In this document: positions 30,609 to 63,227 of the stretch, in pieces
How positions within the stretch are numbered: position 1 is the stretch's first letter
Layout of the letters: the number at the start of each line of letters is the position of its first letter
From: Shigella phage phi25-307
DNA length: 64,000 nt
Strand: one strand, 5' to 3'
Sequence record: MG589383
Translations under genes and position numbers: made by a program
Notes under the pieces: generated by a model
The model's database searches: none
What the model saw: the letters and a program-made list of their open reading frames with translations, nothing else
What the model was told of the DNA's origin: nothing

Positions 30609-31508
30609 TTATAGACCAGCTAACAGGTCATCGAGGTCGCCATCGTCAGAAGACGAGGAACTCATGAAGTCATCTTCAGTTTTTGCAGAACTAAAGGCTT
30701 CCATGTCTTTATCAAAATCGTCGAGGTCAGAAGCAACTTTATCTGCAACAGAAGCTGCGGCAGCTGCTGCACCACCAAGAGCGGCAGTACCAAGAACTTG
30801 AGTAAATTTAGTATTCAATTCTTCAAACGATTTGAACTTATCTTTAGAAGTCATTTCAGAAAGGTCAACCATTTGTTCGAACAATTCTTTCTGGAAAGAT
30901 TCATCATCAATGTTTGGAATCGCAGATTGATTCAGGAATTTAGATTCGTCATAGTTACTGAAACCAGAAACCTGTTTAACTTTCAGCACAAAGTTAGCAC
31001 CTTCCCATGGGCAAGTTACATCAACAGGAGTTTCACCCATTTCAGTATCGACTGCAATCATTGCATTGATTTTGTCCCAAATCTTTTTACCAAAACGGTA
31101 TTTGAATACTTTACCTTCATTATCTGGAGCTTGTGGGTCTTTAACAACCAGGATATTAGCCCAATAAGAAGTTTTACGTTTCAGTTGAGAATATTCTGTT
31201 TTGTTTGTATTGTACAGATCATTTTTACTAATGTACTGACATACTGGACAAGAGTCATAATCGCCGTGTGTAGATGAACAGGTTTCAATATACCATTTGC
31301 CGTTTTTCTTGAACCCGTGGTTAACAAGAATTGCAAACGGAAGTGCGTCATCTGTTTTTGCCGGCAGGAAACGAATTACCGCTTGACCATTACCGGATGC
31401 ATCGAGTTTCAGCTTCCATTCACCTTTATCTTCTGAAGAGAAACCTTTGTTACCATTCAGTTTAGCCATCTGAGCTGCGAGGTCTGCGGTACTTTTACGT
31501 TTAAACAT
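30609..31508 (-). CDS. 32: single-stranded DNA-binding protein gp32 (299 aa)
   Basis: Collinear with T4 gp32 ([35 protein letters not shown], zinc site [16 protein letters not shown], acidic C-terminus). Confidence 0.95.
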
Positions 31509-31575
31509 TTTATTTGCCTTTATTTAGATTAATTAAATTTTACAGTTGGTTGCTACGACACTTATACCTCGTAGC
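31509..31575 (-). promoter_or_regulatory. gene 32 translational operator: AU-rich unstructured leader plus upstream hairpin/pseudoknot element
   Basis: Minus-strand leader AAAATTTAATTAATCTAAATAAAGGCAAATAAA-ATG; hairpin GCTACGA(10 nt)TCGTAGC at 31552-31575; matches known T4 gene 32 autoregulatory architecture. Confidence 0.5.
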
Positions 31576-31622
31576 TGGTATGATTTATTTATAAAGTAAT
31601 TTTAACACACAAGAAATAAAGC

Positions 31623-32276
31623 TTAATACTTACATGATTTGATTGTTTCTATGAACAATTTCTTAGCAGCATTTCCATCGATTTGAAGTATTTTTCGATA
31701 TGCCTTTAATTTGGTAGAATAATTTTGCCAGACTAAATTGTCAGTAAGTTCGTCGTGCTTATCTATAATATTCAAAAATGAGTCCAACAATAAGAAAGTC
31801 TCAAATGAGATTATATTGCTTTGTAGCAATTTGAATATGTAGCTCGACTGAACGTTGTTATTATAATCAAATATCTCTTGAAGCGCACTAACTTCAACTT
31901 TCTTACTGAAATAGTAGATGTTACGTACGTCTTCAGCAAACGTCTCCTTGGCTTGTTTGAGACGTCCAATATATTCCCTATAGAAAACTAATGCATCAGC
32001 GTCTGATATCTCACCAATCCATGCGTCTTGGTTAGCAACTAAGTTGCTTATGAATATCAAGGTGAGTTCCTTCAATTTATATTTCTCTGCTAGTTTTTCA
32101 AAGAAATATTTATCTCGGCGTTTTTGATACGCATTATCCGAAACACGCATGCACCAGTTATATTTGATTACGTCATACCGACCACCAAAGTGGTTTTTGC
32201 ACATCAAGTATAGTTTATATACTGATTTACCGTTAATATAACGTTCTCCGTCAGGAGGCATGCGTATTTTAATCAT
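31623..32276 (-). CDS. 59: helicase loader gp59 (217 aa)
   Basis: Size identical to T4 gp59; position between 32 and 33. Confidence 0.85.
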   Translation of the reverse strand: MIKIRMPPDGERYINGKSVYKLYLMCKNHFGGRYDVIKYNWCMRVSDNAYQKRRDKYFFEKLAEKYKLKELTLIFISNLVANQDAWIGEISDADALVFYREYIGRLKQAKETFAEDVRNIYYFSKKVEVSALQEIFDYNNNVQSSYIFKLLQSNIISFETFLLLDSFLNIIDKHDELTDNLVWQNYSTKLKAYRKILQIDGNAAKKLFIETIKSCKY

Positions 32277-56791: not shown

Positions 56792-58596
56792 TCTTTACGG
56801 AGTTCAGGGTCGTTACCCATGAGCATTTCAAATAGTTCTTTCCAATTTTCAGGAAGTTTAACTACGTCGTACACAGGGTTTTGAATCATTTCTTTATATT
56901 CATCCCGCTGAAGTGAGCCCAATCCCTTGATGTATCGAATACTATGCTTAGGCAGTGTATCTTTGGCTTCTTCATACTCAGCTACAGTATAAAACCATTT
57001 TTGAGTTTTGCCAATTTGTGCAATAATTACAGGCGTTTTAACAAAGCGAATACGTCCTTGTTCAAACAATTCAGGCCAATTACTAAAGAAAGCAAGCAAA
57101 GCCGGATAAATACTTCCAAGACCGTCATGATCGGCATCGGTCATAATTGCAATATTACGATAGTTCGTATTCTCTGCCTTTTCACCAAGAATAAGACCTG
57201 TGATAGCACAGATATCAAAGAGCTCTTTGTTCTTCATCATATCAGCATATGACATACCCCAGCTATTCATCACCTTACCACGTAATGGGAATCCACCGTG
57301 TAGTTCACGGTCACGAACATCAATGAGATAACCAATTGCCGAATCACCTTCTGTTAAAAACAATGTCGTATCTGCATCTTTACCACATTGGTTAGCTTTA
57401 ATATGCTTATGAACCTTAGCTTTAGTTGCCTTTTTAGCTGCTTTAGTTTCTGCAGCCTTTTCTGCTGCCAATTTACGAGCTAATGCTGCTTCAACAATAG
57501 GCATAATCAAAGCTTCATTTTTAAGAAGTGCCTGAGCAATTTTCTTAGCATCTAATTGGATATGATTACGAATATCACCATACGTTGACGTTAAACGTTC
57601 TTTAGTCTGAGAATCAAAACGCATGTTGCTCATGTCTCTAATAAACATCAACATTGTGAGGCATTCTTTAACACGAGCTTTAGTGACTTCAATACCCTTA
57701 TATTTCTTTTTAATACCGGGCAAAAGATGTTCGCAGATATCATCCATTACACATTCAACATGATGACCACCATTTTTAGTATGGATGTTATTCACATAAG
57801 TTAAATGACGGAAGCCATCTGGTGATGTTGTGAATGCTATAGAGACTTTATCATTTTCTTGAATGATGTTATCTTCGCCAAATTGTTTAGCAAATCGTTT
57901 AAAATTACCATCAACCTTTTTACCATTAAATGTGAACTTGATATCAGGATAAACGACTGCCAATGTTTGAAGACGGTCTAAAGTAATATCTAAATAAATT
58001 TGAGATAAATTATGCTCTTCAAATGAAGAGAAATCAGGAGTGAAGATTACTTTAGTGCCTTTACCTTTAGATTTCTTAGAAGACCATGATTTGTTTTCCA
58101 TTCCGTTTGAACAGTTAACAGTGATTTCATTTTCGCCATCTGACGTGATGCCTGTAAACAACGTAGAGAAGATATTAGTTAAACTACTCCCGACGCCGTT
58201 CATACCACCAGTCTTGCGTTCAGAGTCATCACCAAAGTTACCACCGGCCTTTGGAATAGTCCAGGCCGCTACAGGCCCAGGAATTTGTTCACCTGTTTGG
58301 TCGGTAACTAAACCTTGAGGAATACCACGTCCGTTATCTTCCACTGAGACTTGATTATTTTTAATTTGCACATCAATTTTATTTGCAAACTTAAATGATG
58401 TACGAATAGCTTCATCAACCGAGTTGTCAATAATCTCATCGATTAATTTAACAAGACCAGGAACATATTCAACTTGTTGATATTTACCAAACAAAAAACG
58501 CTCATGGGCTTCTTTAGCCGAAGAACCAATATACATGCCACTGCGTTTCTTAATATGTTCTACATCTGACAATACCTTAATTTCATTTTTAATCAT
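56776..58596 (-). CDS. 39: DNA topoisomerase II large subunit, fused 39+60 type (606 aa)
   Basis: GHKL ATPase N-terminus collinear with T4 gp39 and Toprim C-terminus collinear with T4 gp60 (AIMTDADHDGLGSIYP.LL.FFSNWPELFEQGRIRFVKTPVIIAQ) in one uninterrupted frame. Confidence 0.93.
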   Translation of the reverse strand: MIKNEIKVLSDVEHIKKRSGMYIGSSAKEAHERFLFGKYQQVEYVPGLVKLIDEIIDNSVDEAIRTSFKFANKIDVQIKNNQVSVEDNGRGIPQGLVTDQTGEQIPGPVAAWTIPKAGGNFGDDSERKTGGMNGVGSSLTNIFSTLFTGITSDGENEITVNCSNGMENKSWSSKKSKGKGTKVIFTPDFSSFEEHNLSQIYLDITLDRLQTLAVVYPDIKFTFNGKKVDGNFKRFAKQFGEDNIIQENDKVSIAFTTSPDGFRHLTYVNNIHTKNGGHHVECVMDDICEHLLPGIKKKYKGIEVTKARVKECLTMLMFIRDMSNMRFDSQTKERLTSTYGDIRNHIQLDAKKIAQALLKNEALIMPIVEAALARKLAAEKAAETKAAKKATKAKVHKHIKANQCGKDADTTLFLTEGDSAIGYLIDVRDRELHGGFPLRGKVMNSWGMSYADMMKNKELFDICAITGLILGEKAENTNYRNIAIMTDADHDGLGSIYPALLAFFSNWPELFEQGRIRFVKTPVIIAQIGKTQKWFYTVAEYEEAKDTLPKHSIRYIKGLGSLQRDEYKEMIQNPVYDVVKLPENWKELFEMLMGNDPELRKDWMLG

Positions 58597-58641
58597 GTTG
58601 TCTCCTCGTTATGAAGGTATTCTATCATCCGAAATCTAAAG

Positions 58642-58660
58642 CAAAAAGGGCCGAAGCCCT
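58642..58660 (-). terminator. terminator (GGGC-UUCG-GCCC, U-tract) upstream of gene 39
   Basis: Minus-strand hairpin followed by TTTTTGC; abuts stop of ORF 58660-59085. Confidence 0.5.
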
Positions 58661-59085
58661 TATTTAAATTTAATTTTCTGAAGTGCATCAATTGCAGCCA
58701 AACGCCCTTGTTCACTTTTAACTGTAATGACCACATCGCCTGATACGATCACCGAACCATCAACAAATTCTATAGAGCCTTTTTTGAAATCGACAGATGT
58801 ATCTGGTTCCGGAACTTCTTCAAAGAATTTAAATTCTGCACCATAAAGCAGAATATCACCTTGCATACTATGAATAGTTCGGCCATAATCGCCTACGGCT
58901 TCTACAGCAATCACAGAAACGCCGTAACCAATCATCTCTTCCACAATAAAATCTTTGGACAATAAAGTAGTATGCAGATTAGTATTAAGACGTTTACCAG
59001 TCGTATTAAGAATTCTCAAGAAATTATCTTCCTGTCCTTTGATAATACGATATTTCTTACCAACTTCAAAACCTTTAAAAGCCAT
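58660..59085 (-). CDS. hypothetical protein (141 aa)
   Basis: ORF; terminator hairpin at its 3-prime end. Confidence 0.5.
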   Translation of the reverse strand: MAFKGFEVGKKYRIIKGQEDNFLRILNTTGKRLNTNLHTTLLSKDFIVEEMIGYGVSVIAVEAVGDYGRTIHSMQGDILLYGAEFKFFEEVPEPDTSVDFKKGSIEFVDGSVIVSGDVVITVKSEQGRLAAIDALQKIKFK

Positions 59086-59123
59086 AATTAACCCTTCTTA
59101 AGTAAGTCGTAAAAACCACCGTT

Positions 59124-59267
59124 CACATGTTTAGGAGCAGAAACCCGACGAGTAGACAAACGATGACATTCAGGGCAAACATCGTTTTCTCGTTCAGAAA
59201 TTCTTTTAATTTTTTCATATTCATGACCACAATCTTCAGATTGGCATTTATAGTCGTATAACGGCAT
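59124..59267 (-). CDS. small Cys-containing membrane-anchored peptide (47 aa; not in ORF track)
   Basis: Hand-translated MPLYDYKCQSEDCGHDMKKLKEFLNEKTMFALNVIVCLLVGFLLLNM; SD AAGGA upstream. Confidence 0.3.
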
Positions 59268-59269
59268 TA

Positions 59270-59698
59270 TTATTCCTTAAAATGTGCTTTCAACATTTGA
59301 TACAAAGACCATGCCTGGTCGTTATTTTCGATAGTAATCGTCATCACCGGAAATTCAGACAATTCGTCAAGTTCACCAGAATCTTGCTCTTCGGACGCTT
59401 GATATGGATTTTCAACTTCGTCAAAGAACTCTGCTTCATTCGTGGAGAGCCAGATAAAGTTTTCATCAAGGATATCACCGCCTGTTGCGTATCCAACCGT
59501 GCCAGTAGATGTCACAATTTTAGTAGGACGGCCAAGATGGTCAACATCTAATACTTTAAATGGTTCCATGCCAAGACGTCGTGCATAAATCCCATTATCA
59601 GTGTGGTCTTTAATAAACTCTTCTTGGGCACGTTTATCTATAAATTGGTACCATGAGTTAACGCGGAATTTATTAGCCATTAGTAAGTTTCCTTCCAA
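59270..59698 (-). CDS. hypothetical protein (142 aa)
   Basis: ORF. Confidence 0.5.
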
Positions 59699-59907
59699 TA
59701 AGTTGTACCGTTTTCAGTGATTTCACGGAAGATACCATAGATAGGCATTTCATCACCGAGTTTTTCGTAAACGTAAATCACTTCTGTGTAGCATAAAAAT
59801 TCGGTCCAGTTTTTCTGTACAACAACTAAATCAGGATTAAACAGAACATCTTCAAACTCATCGATGTTTGAATCAGTAGTTACGTTTTTAATGATTTGGC
59901 GTTTCAT
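59680..59907 (-). CDS. hypothetical protein (75 aa; start at internal ATG 59907)
   Basis: SD GAGGAG upstream of ATG 59907 and early promoter at 59933-59962 argue against the longer ORF-track start. Confidence 0.45.
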
Positions 59908-59968
59908 AATATTCTCCTCTTGTTTTGATAGGTCTATAGTAACACATCTAGAGGAGAAGTAAACAACT

Positions 59969-60388
59969 TTATGCAAAAGATGCTGGACAATATTTTTTGA
60001 TTTGGAACTCAGGAACTACCATGAACTGTCCAGCGAAAACGATGTTATAAAGCTTAACACCATCTTCTACCCAACGGTCGCTAATAAATCCGGCGATTTG
60101 CTTAGTTTTCCACGGCGTTCCATCGGTTCCCGCAGCAATAGTGAATTCATGGTCTTTTACAACTAAAACAGACCTGCACAGTTTCCATTTGAACGCTTTT
60201 TCTTCTGGCTCAATGAATTGGCTTGAGACGTAGCCAATGTTGCCATCGGCGTCACGAACTTTAACTTGATGTGGACTAAAGAGTCCACAACTTACAGAAA
60301 GAACTTCAACCAACTTCCCGGCAACTTTAGAGCGAGAAGCAACAGATACATATACGTAATCACCTGTAGAGAGATTTACAATATTCAT
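59969..60388 (-). CDS. hypothetical protein, tandem paralogue A (139 aa)
   Basis: Shares ASRSK.AG.LVEV, FKW.LC and GFISD.WVEDG.KLYNIVF.G.F.VV motifs with the adjacent upstream gene. Confidence 0.55.
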   Translation of the reverse strand: MNIVNLSTGDYVYVSVASRSKVAGKLVEVLSVSCGLFSPHQVKVRDADGNIGYVSSQFIEPEEKAFKWKLCRSVLVVKDHEFTIAAGTDGTPWKTKQIAGFISDRWVEDGVKLYNIVFAGQFMVVPEFQIKKYCPASFA

Positions 60389-60397
60389 AATAATTCC

Positions 60398-60853
60398 TTA
60401 AGCTTTACGAGGAGACACATAGCGAGTGATTTCAGATTCTTTAACAACTCGGAAGTCACCTAAGAATACGATATTGTATAACTTTTCACCATCTTCAACC
60501 CATTGGTCACTAATGAAGCCACACATAGTATCAGTTTTGCTTGGATAACCGTATTCGTCGATGTAATCAAATTCTTTATCGGTTATAAATTCAACGCCTT
60601 TGCAAAGGGCCCATTTGAACTGTACATTAGGTTCAGTAGAAGCAAAATGAGCACTCACATGAGTTTCCAGGAATTTAGGACTTACGTAAGCGTACTGAGT
60701 ATCCTGACGTCCAAAACTAGGAATGATTCGAACTTTAACTTCTTTAATACGTCCCATGCCATTTGTGCGAAGTCCGACAACTTCAACCAGACGACCTGCG
60801 GCTTTAGACCGGGATGCAGTTGATACACGCTTAATTTCACCAATAGTAATCAT
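60398..60853 (-). CDS. hypothetical protein, tandem paralogue B (151 aa; start at internal ATG 60853)
   Basis: Paralogue of 59969-60388; early promoter 60866-60907 and SD upstream of ATG 60853. Confidence 0.55.
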   Translation of the reverse strand: MITIGEIKRVSTASRSKAAGRLVEVVGLRTNGMGRIKEVKVRIIPSFGRQDTQYAYVSPKFLETHVSAHFASTEPNVQFKWALCKGVEFITDKEFDYIDEYGYPSKTDTMCGFISDQWVEDGEKLYNIVFLGDFRVVKESEITRYVSPRKA

Positions 60854-60918
60854 AATTTTTCTCTCTTTGTTTAAGTTGAATTCATTATACTCCATCCATC
60901 CTTGGATGTAAACTGGTT

Positions 60919-61596
60919 TTATCGCTGTTTTACACTTAACGGGTCAGGATTTTCAGGGACATCTTCAAGGCCAAGCGCATAACGCTGAGCATATTTTAAC
61001 ATCAAAATATCTTTAGCACAATCATGAATACTATCATGGGCAACGAATCCTTTTAACGTACCCAACGGTAATGGACACATACTTAATCCTCGTGTCAACG
61101 AGTAAGCTTCGATTGCCGTACGAATATCGCGTTGAGCCCAGAATTTAACCGGTTCTAATTTATCAGTATCAATCTCTGGTTCAGGAACACCTTCATCACG
61201 ATAGAGGTCACGAATCAAATCGACTAATATCGGGAAGTCAAAGCTCATACCACGGCACCACATCTGTGATTTCCATTGGTCAACTTTATTAGCTCGACAA
61301 TAATCTAAAAAGATTTTAATGCCTTCAAGCGTAGTGACATCGTCTTCAGACGGAGCCAAGTTTTTACGTGCTTCAGCCGATTGTTCTTTCCACCATTTCA
61401 TAGTGGATTTAGCGAAAACTCGCTTCCCTTTCTGAGAAGCTAAATTAAATTTAATTCGTTTACCTCGTTGAACAAGTTCTTCAAATGATTCAACAACTTC
61501 AGGGTCGGAATTATATGCAATAACCGCAAGGTCAATAACAGCCGCTTTTGATGTATTGCCGAATGTTTCAAAATCTATAATAACATCAGTGCTCAT
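60919..61596 (-). CDS. dexA: exonuclease A, DEDD family (225 aa)
   Basis: DEDD exonuclease motif I (IIDFETFG) and later H/D motif; size and synteny with T4 DexA. Confidence 0.88.
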   Translation of the reverse strand: MSTDVIIDFETFGNTSKAAVIDLAVIAYNSDPEVVESFEELVQRGKRIKFNLASQKGKRVFAKSTMKWWKEQSAEARKNLAPSEDDVTTLEGIKIFLDYCRANKVDQWKSQMWCRGMSFDFPILVDLIRDLYRDEGVPEPEIDTDKLEPVKFWAQRDIRTAIEAYSLTRGLSMCPLPLGTLKGFVAHDSIHDCAKDILMLKYAQRYALGLEDVPENPDPLSVKQR

Positions 61597-61605
61597 AATT
61601 TTCTC

Positions 61606-62919
61606 TCAAATAAAATGGACGTCAAACCGGCCACGAGTTGTGCCGACATACAATAACTGTTTAGCTAATTCTGAATCGGCATAATGGATACACGGTGTAT
61701 AAACAAAGGCCGTGTCAACAGACATACCCTGGGCCTTATGGAAGGTTGATACTGGTAGTGCCTTCACCTTAGTGAACATACGTTTAGCATCCCAGAATTC
61801 GCTCCATGGAGCTTTACCACCTTTATTCCAAAATTTGTATGTTTCTGCGGTCTTAGCCAAAAACAAATTGAATTTATAAAGCTCTTCTTCAGAAGAAATA
61901 ACCTTTATATCTTCGCGGATGTATTCTTCATCATCCCCATATGTTTCTACTGTAAGATTCCAGTATCGTATCATATATTCGCCCGAAACACCACGTGCTT
62001 TAACGAATGTAGACGTTTCTACAGCATCTCTAATACGAACGAATTGGCCGTTATTGAAAAGCATTTCGGTAATATTTTTACCATCTAGCTTATATGTCTT
62101 AGTAAATGGCTCCTGTAGAACAATGACTTCGTCTTTAATAAATGGTTTTTCTGTTTCAAGAAGTTTTCGTCGAATAATTGAATTTAACTTGTCCACCGAC
62201 TTATTTGTGAATGCCATCATTCGATTTTCGAAAAGGTCTTCAGGAGTTTTAACGACGTTAAAATAGTTCATCATATACGATTTAAGGTCTGTATATCCGT
62301 GAACACCATGTCCATCAACTACTTTATCGTAAATCCATTTGCCATTACGAATATCAGTAGCAACATCAATAATTGGTGCATTGCTACGTTTAACTTCTGT
62401 AAGGTTGCATTGCACGAAGTCTTTGTGAGTGAAGAAAGGACTTAGATACGCAGTTGATTCGCCTGGGTCTACCGGACGAATCTGGCATCGGTCGCCGATG
62501 CCAATTACTGTACACCATTTAGGGATACTAGCTAACATTATTTTAAACAGAGAACGGTCGCACATTGACGCTTCATCAAATAACAGTACACGGCACAAGG
62601 CTAGGTCTGGAACCTTTTTCTGTTCAAACAATACGTTTTCTTCGTATGTAGTTGGGTTGATTTTAAGAATGCTATGAATAGTCGATGCTTCTTGTCCCGC
62701 AAGTTTACTTAGAACCTTTTTAGCGGCATGTGTAGGGGCTGCTAAAATAATACCTGATTCTCCAGAAGAAATAAGGGCTTCAACGATGAATCTAGTAAGG
62801 GTTGTTTTACCTGTACCAGCAGGCCCATTAATAGTTACGTGATGTTTCTTTTCTTTAATAGCGTTCATAACAACGTTGAAGGCGTTTTTCTGGCCTTCAG
62901 TCAAATCATCAAATGTCAT
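61606..62919 (-). CDS. dda: Dda DNA helicase, SF1B (437 aa)
   Basis: Collinear with T4 Dda (MTFDDLTEGQKNAFN.VM.AIKEKKHHVTINGPAGTGKTTLT, STFHKAQGMSVD.AF.YTPCIHYAD). Confidence 0.94.
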   Translation of the reverse strand: MTFDDLTEGQKNAFNVVMNAIKEKKHHVTINGPAGTGKTTLTRFIVEALISSGESGIILAAPTHAAKKVLSKLAGQEASTIHSILKINPTTYEENVLFEQKKVPDLALCRVLLFDEASMCDRSLFKIMLASIPKWCTVIGIGDRCQIRPVDPGESTAYLSPFFTHKDFVQCNLTEVKRSNAPIIDVATDIRNGKWIYDKVVDGHGVHGYTDLKSYMMNYFNVVKTPEDLFENRMMAFTNKSVDKLNSIIRRKLLETEKPFIKDEVIVLQEPFTKTYKLDGKNITEMLFNNGQFVRIRDAVETSTFVKARGVSGEYMIRYWNLTVETYGDDEEYIREDIKVISSEEELYKFNLFLAKTAETYKFWNKGGKAPWSEFWDAKRMFTKVKALPVSTFHKAQGMSVDTAFVYTPCIHYADSELAKQLLYVGTTRGRFDVHFI

Positions 62920-63227
62920 CGTAAAGTCCCTGCAATTGGAATACTAACAATACGGCCTGTATCCAGGATTCGTTGATACAATTTTTGCGTCTCCGCATCT
63001 AGTTTAACGTGTTTCATTTCAAGCTTATTAAACCAGAACTTACGCGGAGTTTCGACCATTCTTAGAACTCCCATTTTTAAATCTGTTTTATACTGTGTTT
63101 TCAAAGTATCGAAAACTTTATCTGCAATATCCTTTCTAAAAAATACTGCAGGACGATGCTCATCAAGTGGAACCGGGACAGTAAATCCTTCCATATCTCG
63201 ATAAACTATTGCATATACATAAACCAT
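62916..63227 (-). CDS. hypothetical protein dda.1-like (103 aa)
   Basis: ORF overlapping dda start by 4 nt. Confidence 0.5.
   Translation of the reverse strand: MVYVYAIVYRDMEGFTVPVPLDEHRPAVFFRKDIADKVFDTLKTQYKTDLKMGVLRMVETPRKFWFNKLEMKHVKLDAETQKLYQRILDTGRIVSIPIAGTLR

Follow-up and report, generated by a model that had tools for sequence, protein, structure and literature searches.

Tandem MotB family genes between dexA and cef in Shigella phage phi25-307 and related T4-like phages

Bacteriophage T4 carries a single motB gene between dexA and cef, and the question addressed here is what a second, diverged copy at this locus represents: a redundant duplicate, a decaying remnant, or a distinct functional gene. 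The 64,000-nucleotide (nt) stretch of the genome of Shigella phage phi25-307 that was analyzed (sequence record MG589383; hereinafter, the window) contains two such genes in tandem, both on the minus strand. The upstream gene, motB-L (60398..60853, with the ATG at 60853), encodes a canonical MotB-type protein of 151 amino acids (aa), and the downstream gene, motB-S (59969..60388, stop codon included), encodes a compact, diverged MotB paralog of 139 aa; the two proteins are denoted L and S below. A preceding sequence-only reading had delimited the pair exactly (59969-60853) and interpreted it as the product of a local duplication followed by divergence, with the remark that such duplicated early genes are often host-takeover or anti-defense factors. 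The interpretation that we favor, with some reserve, is that L and S are two functional members of the MotB family which probably form one early unit, with S as a modulator, and that the pair is either old or assembled by recombination. The pair as such is already annotated and in print: many of the phage records with the pair, RefSeq entries included, are annotated "MotB-like transcriptional regulator (x2)," the presence of two motB copies in phage RB69 has been stated in passing (Patterson-West et al., 2021; PMC7827196), and the family is known. What appears mildly new is that the S subfamily has its own consistent peculiarities and that domains have been shuffled at the conserved blocks.

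Membership in the MotB family and the peculiarities of S

The sequences of S and L are 43% identical over 145 alignment columns (BLASTP, E = 5e-32), and the three blocks from which the relationship was originally deduced (ASRSK.AG.LVEV, FKW.LC and GFISD.WVEDG.KLYNIVF.G.F.VV) are all found in this alignment. Both proteins match Pfam family PF17613 (motB, modifier of transcription; gathering score, 25 bits) over nearly the full length of the model, S with 78.8 bits (5.5e-22) and L with 130 bits (9.8e-38), and both match phrog_1671 (MotB-like transcriptional regulator; 1.7e-50 for S and 1.2e-64 for L). The similarity is thus far above chance, and the paralogy of the two genes is confirmed. L is the closer relative of T4 MotB (48% identity vs. 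37% for S) and is 94-99% identical to the annotated MotB proteins of RB69, JK45 and PhAPEC2 (94% in the case of RB69 MotB, P0058); S shares 86-97% identity with proteins annotated in ST2, ESh27, RB68, mogra and other phages. All 30 invariant columns in an alignment of 25 family members (alignment A1, with S as the first row) are retained in S and in L, and both proteins display the two-domain layout of MotB, with an N-terminal barrel containing the VS..SRSK.AG motif and a C-terminal barrel characterized by FKW ... (I/V)(S/T)D.WVE.G.KLYN.VF.

For T4 MotB, a KOW-like N-terminal domain and an OB-like (cold-shock DNA-binding type) C-terminal domain have been proposed, and MotB.1 has been described as a relative that shares the C-terminal domain (PMC7827196). 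The AlphaFold2 (AF2) models of S and L (predicted local distance difference test scores, pLDDT, of 82.9 and 85.0, respectively) each consist of two five-stranded beta-barrels. In L, the predicted N-terminal barrel (aa 1-63; 60665-60853; net charge +6) is followed by a disordered linker (aa 64-78; 60620-60664), within which residues 66-75 have pLDDT values below 50, and by the C-terminal barrel (aa 79-151; 60401-60619; net charge -4), with the stop codon at 60398-60400. In S, there is no such disordered segment: the N-terminal barrel (aa 1-60; 60209-60388; net charge about 0) is joined by a five-residue connector (aa 61-65; 60194-60208) to the C-terminal barrel (aa 66-139; 59972-60193; net charge +3), and the stop codon is at 59969-59971. 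All these segments are on the minus strand. In a Foldseek comparison with viral models, the matches included proteins designated MotB-like or "KOW domain" from other T4-like phages, which infect Klebsiella, Yersinia, Serratia and Citrobacter. The likeness to the NusG/Spt5 KOW, Tudor, tandem Tudor (53BP1), PWWP and KIN17 tandem SH3-like domains is a resemblance of fold only, at 6-21% sequence identity, and does not demonstrate membership in any of these families. Neither S nor L matched the KOW profile (Pfam PF00467) at E-values up to 1, and for S, sub-threshold Pfam matches were obtained with SH3_3 (0.028) and YqiJ_OB (0.017). A sequence comparison of L with all PDB chains yielded nothing below E = 0.79, that is, no solved relative. 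The family is tiny: a profile search among 1.84 billion representative proteins detected 35 clusters (at 50% identity) with E-values of at most 1e-3, all consisting of small phage-type proteins, with no cellular homolog that could hint at a function.

Against this background of conserved architecture, S stands apart from the rest of the family in several respects. Among 139 distinct MotB proteins grouped by domain type, the net charge of the N-terminal domain ranges from -2 to +1 in the 26 S orthologs and from +2 to +9 in every other type. The linker consists of 5 aa in the S type, compared to 6-56 aa elsewhere (at least 15 aa in all but one protein), and the RIIPxxG hairpin of the N-terminal barrel is absent from S. 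The L-type C-terminal domain is the most acidic in the family (mean charge, -4). The combination of a basic N-terminal domain with a flexible linker, a regularity observed here rather than a published criterion, holds for L (+6, 15 aa) but not for S (-1, 5 aa). Thus, the middles of the two proteins, noted at the outset as diverged, indeed differ, but not through simple divergence, since S lacks the linker and the hairpin altogether.

Apart from PF17613, the two-domain layout, the dexA-cef locus and, probably, early expression, the T4 protein shares with L and S the motifs SRSKAAG, FKW and ITDQWVEDGVKLYN and the C-terminal alanine. The difference is that T4 has a single motB with both domains basic: the charges of the N-terminal part (up to the FKW motif) and of the C-terminal domain are +4 and +2 in T4 MotB, +6 and -4 in L, and -1 and +3 in S. 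The function may be split between L, with its basic N-terminal and acidic C-terminal domains, and S, with a neutral N-terminal domain and no linker. The terminal alanine (last codons at 60401-60403 in motB-L and 59972-59974 in motB-S, minus strand) is present in 138 of 139 distinct full-length MotB family proteins of all types, at the end of an otherwise variable tail (IHFA, PRKA, ASFA, ALYA, AALA), and the sole exception has a frameshifted tail. The C-terminal alanine could be a degradation or recognition signal.

Expression signals, selection and distribution

A promoter-like site of the early (sigma-70/T4-early) type, TTTACA-17 nt-TATAAT (60884..60912, minus strand), is located 31 nt upstream of the motB-L start, inside the 65-nt spacer between dexA and motB-L (60854-60918). 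It matches the consensus in 11 of 12 positions and is the best site found by a promoter scan of the 58500-63200 region; an identical site precedes the L gene in locus L004, and the same hexamers are present in L006, L013 and L014. The L-type entries in the databases are often 165-175 aa long (P0049, P0051, P0054 and others) because gene callers place the start at an upstream ATG or at a leucine codon taken for a start; the extra N-terminal stretch in such entries, LYIQGWMEYNEFNLNKER (60854-60895 in the window), is the translated early promoter, TTTACATCCAAGGATGGATGGAGTATAAT. The 165-aa form of L reported by the open reading frame (ORF) finder, with the start at 60895, likewise reads through the promoter and was rejected. 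Also rejected, upon inspection by eye, was a MotA-box middle promoter: the sole TGCTT is located within motB-L at the wrong spacing from a -10 element.

The two genes are separated by the 9-nt spacer GGAATTATT (60389..60397, minus strand), which together with the motB-L stop codon reads TAAGGAATTATTATG and contains a Shine-Dalgarno-like AAGGA that overlaps this stop codon, so that translational coupling of S to L is suggested. The TAAGGAATTATTATG junction, with S starting 9 nt past the stop of L, is identical in all 11 loci that were read, from both Mosigvirus and Tequatrovirus, although the synonymous divergence in S reaches 0.66. Downstream of the pair, the motB-S/cef spacer (59908..59968, minus strand) contains a weaker early-promoter-like sequence, GTTTAC...TACTAT, that is below the threshold of the promoter scan, along with the cef Shine-Dalgarno sequence GAGGAG. 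No terminator-like site was detected between motB-L, motB-S and cef in a scan of the locus. Both genes are probably early, as the sequence-only reading had it.

That reading also named a circumstance which would overturn it, namely, that one of the copies is a non-expressed remnant. S is shorter than L, has the lower Pfam score and lacks segments that are found in every other MotB, all features that could be expected of a gene in decay. However, S is an intact 139-aa gene in 11 of the 11 loci read, and the ratio of nonsynonymous to synonymous substitution rates (dN/dS), estimated by the Nei-Gojobori method for the 28 pairs of eight orthologs (27 of them informative), is 0.02-0.25 at synonymous divergence (dS) of up to 0.66. 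Together with the invariance of the Shine-Dalgarno junction, the retention of all family-invariant residues and the confident AF2 model, these observations leave hardly any room for the remnant interpretation, and by the sequence evidence, S is a functional gene.

In a tblastn search with S as the query, MotB-like sequences were detected in 769 phage records, of which 206 contain a close S ortholog (at least 60% identity); match places outnumber records by exactly 206 as well. Two MotB places were found in each of the 11 sampled S-carrying records, and one in each of the 29 sampled records without S. The pair, then, is held by about 27% of the MotB-carrying records, the remainder being single-copy as far as sampled. 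The carriers include Mosigvirus (SF, LF82-31, p000v, RB69) and Tequatrovirus of the RB3 species (RB6), and the gene pair in these phages is the same as that in the window. The L-type C-terminal domain is present in about 200 records, compared to the 206 with S, and in every case where the context of an L-type gene was read, S followed.

Locus organization, domain shuffling and origin of the pair

The gene order in the window is dda (61606..62919), dexA (60919..61596), motB-L, motB-S, cef (59683..59907), goF (59273-59680), a 39.2-like gene (59091-59267) and gp39 (topoisomerase gene 39), all on the minus strand. Because dexA, both motB genes and cef share this strand, transcription runs from dexA toward the pair, which is thus downstream of dexA and not, as had been stated, upstream of it. 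The goF homolog is 74% identical to T4 GoF, a member of the LSm-like family (PMC12152347), and matches phrog_622 and goF-type families. The 39.2-like gene is a zinc-ribbon gene homologous to T4 39.2, and beyond it is a further phrog_622 gene (58663-59085, minus strand) that also matches goF-type families; the latter and goF accordingly constitute a second pair of distant paralogs just downstream, with the zinc-ribbon gene in between. The order in T4 is dda, dexA.2, dexA.1, dexA, motB.2, motB.1, motB, cef, goF, so that the L/S pair occupies the early-region place of motB.2-motB.1-motB. The 3.1-kb stretch around the pair is 96.8% identical to that of the Mosigvirus phage SF, and at least 80% of it is covered in 148 phage records. 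A search for related loci in IMG/VR returned 3 loci, and the comparison was built on annotated phage records and look-ups of contigs encoding identical proteins. As a side observation, the record of phage Kha5h (KT184312.1; hit H44, 31225-31716) contains an annotated "ori type 2 repeat" that overlaps motB.

The locus is compact in the window and also in phage ST2 and probably in PNJ-9, in contrast to SF, where the pair is flanked by a MotB.1-like gene (164 aa; L001 3398-3892), between dexA and L, and a MotB.2-like gene (gp184, 174 aa; L001 1866-2390), between S and cef; in RB6, both a MotB.1-like and a MotB.2-like gene are upstream of the pair. The spacer between motB-S and cef in the window aligns with both early-promoter-like spacers around the MotB.2-like gene of SF and is a hybrid of the two, which suggests cassette loss or gain via recombination between the repeated promoter spacers. 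Six-frame scans with regular expressions and hidden Markov models revealed in the window neither a MotB.1-type gene nor further MotB domains or remnants, such as the 29-aa peptide of RB69.

MotB.1 and its relatives correspond to categories 2-4 of one classification (PMC7827196) and to the family with an LSm-like N-terminal domain in another study (PMC12152347); they also match phrog_2333. The MotB.1 type shares with MotB the C-terminal core GW(V/I)(T/S)DQW(I/V)EDG.(E/K)L(L/Y)N(V/I)V, and the MotB.1-like protein of SF matches T4 MotB at 3e-10, over the complete C-terminal domain, and S at 1.5e-8. The N-terminal domain of this type, however, is LSm-like rather than KOW/SH3-like, the proteins are acidic, and they do not end in alanine. 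Neither L nor S has the LSm-like N-terminal domain combined with the C-terminal PTDLLC...GWVTDQWIEDGVELLNVVH that defines the MotB.1/LSm-like group (PMC12152347); both possess an N-terminal domain of the MotB type and a core motif of the form KLYN(I/V)VF, and in the C-terminal-domain tree, MotB and the MotB.1 type are split with 92% support. Notably, T4 MotB.1 (119 aa; L002 2792-3151) breaks off at ...GGWVTDQWIGRWR, midway through the conserved C-terminal core motif, whereas its homologs in SF (164 aa) and RB6 (145 aa) run on through ...IEDGVELLNVVH...VVPRS; the T4 reference protein looks C-terminally truncated.

Phylogenetic analysis was performed separately for the two domains (neighbor-joining with Kimura distances and bootstrap). 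The S clade is monophyletic, with 94-100% bootstrap support, whereas an exclusive clade of S and L is recovered in none of the replicates for the N-terminal domain and in 1-18% of the replicates for the C-terminal domain; the N-terminal domain of S branches outside all main MotB N-terminal domains. The other deep nodes are weak, with at most 43% support, because the domains are only 65-73 columns long. By pairwise identity in the N-terminal domain, S is no closer to L (0.43) than to the MotB proteins of other genera (0.44-0.46), and in the C-terminal domain, the respective values are 0.52 and 0.45-0.53. Thus, of the originally proposed scenario, the paralogy stands, but a simple local duplication is not supported. 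At the nucleotide level, L and S are 53% identical, with the longest identical run of 13 nt, and recent gene conversion or homogenization between the two genes was rejected on this ground.

The MotB family as a whole is strongly mosaic, with N- and C-terminal domain types reassorting between phages. In the isolate phages LF82-31 and Shf125875, the L-type C-terminal domain is preceded by a T4-like N-terminal domain. Three further hybrids involve S: P0027, whose gene stands alone at the locus in contig L009 (1373-1894), combines the N-terminal domain of L with the C-terminal domain of S; P0029 combines a T4 N-terminal domain with the C-terminal domain of S and is found in five contigs; and P0031 corresponds to L as far as WVEDG, where it switches to the S tail. 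Another single-gene hybrid locus is L010 (3001-3492). The crossovers in the hybrids are at or beside the very blocks that drew attention to the pair, and in some contigs, the hybrids replace the pair, as recombination between tandem copies or alleles would predict. Because P0027, P0029 and P0031 come from short assemblies of metagenomes or runs, a residual chance of assembly chimerism has to be reckoned with, even though the identical stretches that they share span no more than about 10-13 nt. Within S, variant patches occur in all combinations, which again indicates recombination.

How could the pair have originated? The adjacency of the two genes, their same orientation, shared architecture and three conserved blocks are what a recent local duplication yielding a redundant second dose of MotB would leave behind, and such was the implicit model of the sequence-only reading. 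This model now appears highly improbable: the sequences have diverged to the extent indicated above, S is not a sister to L, the differences in charge, linker and hairpin are fixed in all S orthologs, and the two genes have been retained together in about 200 genomes from at least two genera. A serious contender is the capture of an allele, whereby S would be a divergent motB that came from a different T4-like lineage and was placed beside the resident gene through recombination during co-infection. Besides the tree topologies, the free reassortment of domain types and the repeated early-promoter spacers that flank the locus and could mediate the gain and loss of cassettes are compatible with this possibility. 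Furthermore, an uncultured T4-like phage contains an independent tandem motB pair in which a 144-aa L-related copy (L017 189-623) is followed, after 10 nt, by a 176-aa copy of the Dhakavirus (KIT01/JS10) type (L017 634-1164); in L016 (2001-2974), the second copy of the same type of pair is split into ORFs of 77 aa and 103 aa. The downstream copy in these two loci shares 67% identity with the one MotB that Dhakavirus KIT01 encodes, and therefore, stacking of foreign alleles does happen at the motB locus. Conversely, no phage was found that encodes an S-type protein as its only MotB, the N/C-terminal hybrids aside, and given the weakly supported deep nodes, fast evolution of S after an old in situ duplication fits equally well. 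Capture is therefore a plausible origin that we would not put ahead of its alternatives; it concerns only the origin and is compatible with the functional interpretation favored here. The L/S pair thus represents either an old duplication or a captured foreign allele.

Possible functions of L and S

The T4 MotB protein is made early and binds DNA tightly and without specificity, whether the DNA is modified or not; it doubles the burst size and is toxic to E. coli. H-NS and StpA co-purify with MotB, which on proV dominates and alters the footprint of H-NS. Host genes are up-regulated by MotB, and H-NS represses about a third of them (PMC6070864, PMC7827196). The assignment of the pair to the host-takeover class is in line with this documented role of the family (PMC6070864, PMC7827196). 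By homology, it is fairly likely that L does what T4 MotB does: it would be made immediately after infection, coat DNA non-specifically, and displace or reshape the H-NS/StpA-DNA complexes, raising the phage yield. The two genes probably share a single early promoter and form the transcription unit motB-L > motB-S (> cef ...). For S, a more tentative proposal can be made because it is apparently coupled to L, evolves under purifying selection, keeps the invariant residues and has lost the basic N-terminal domain and the linker. These features suggest a partner or modulator that acts with L on the same nucleoprotein target with a reduced electrostatic affinity for DNA, and not a redundant dose; we regard this as a guess with somewhat less than even chances. 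As a low-DNA-affinity variant, S might modulate coating, compaction or toxicity, or bring additional host nucleoid proteins within reach. The conserved blocks, in turn, may act as crossover points at which MotB domains are fused and reshuffled.

Several points weigh against this interpretation. The functions of both proteins are wholly transferred from T4 MotB, at 48% identity for L and 37% for S, and the promoter upstream of motB-L is a consensus match only. Which domain of MotB binds DNA is not known (PMC7827196), and for this reason, the step from a neutral N-terminal domain to a lower DNA affinity is a guess. The charge of the C-terminal domain varies from -3 to +4 among the S orthologs, which weakens any strict charge complementation between the two proteins, and about 6 records appear to contain S without an L-type C-terminal domain.

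Two other functional interpretations deserve consideration. The pair, or S alone, could be an anti-defense factor directed against a specific bacterial immune system rather than a remodeler of the nucleoid, as the sequence-only reading had allowed. The circumstantial indications, namely an early gene in a hyperplastic region, a patchy distribution (27% of the records) and mosaic evolution of the kind seen in arms races, are offset by the lack of similarity to known anti-defense proteins in the searches of Pfam, PHROG, PDB and BFVD, and by the fact that T4 MotB, the one member of the family to have been tested, targets DNA and H-NS (PMC6070864, PMC7827196). Nothing that would point to an anti-defense role was found in the present analysis, and we consider it improbable. 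Only slightly better are the chances that L and S constitute an obligate two-gene module in which the properties of MotB were partitioned after duplication or capture. Under such a scenario, L would have kept the basic N-terminal domain and the linker while its C-terminal domain turned acidic, and S would have kept a neutral-to-basic C-terminal domain but neither the linker nor the basic N-terminal domain; L and S would assemble together on DNA, their fixed proportion being set by translational coupling, and the conserved blocks would serve as recombination joints in an arms race with host nucleoid proteins.

Phages encode other H-NS antagonists, such as T7 gp5.5 and T4 Arn, which act by protein mimicry or H-NS binding and not by DNA coating. 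The presumed outcome, an early relief or remodeling of H-NS-DNA complexes, would be alike, whereas neither the folds nor the mechanisms are related; the searches of L and S, in which no dedicated comparison was made, produced no match to either protein in sequence or fold.

The preferred interpretation, two functional MotB proteins with S as a modulator, concerns a paralog pair of a described family, not a new system. MotB is one of the few T4 early proteins from the "dispensable" regions with a known activity, the coating of DNA and disturbance of H-NS silencing. In about a quarter of the sequenced T4-like coliphages, a second, consistently different copy is joined to the first by an invariant 9-nt junction, and the pair is thus a natural experiment on which features of MotB, the basic N-terminal domain, the linker or the C-terminal domain, matter for DNA binding, toxicity and the displacement of H-NS.

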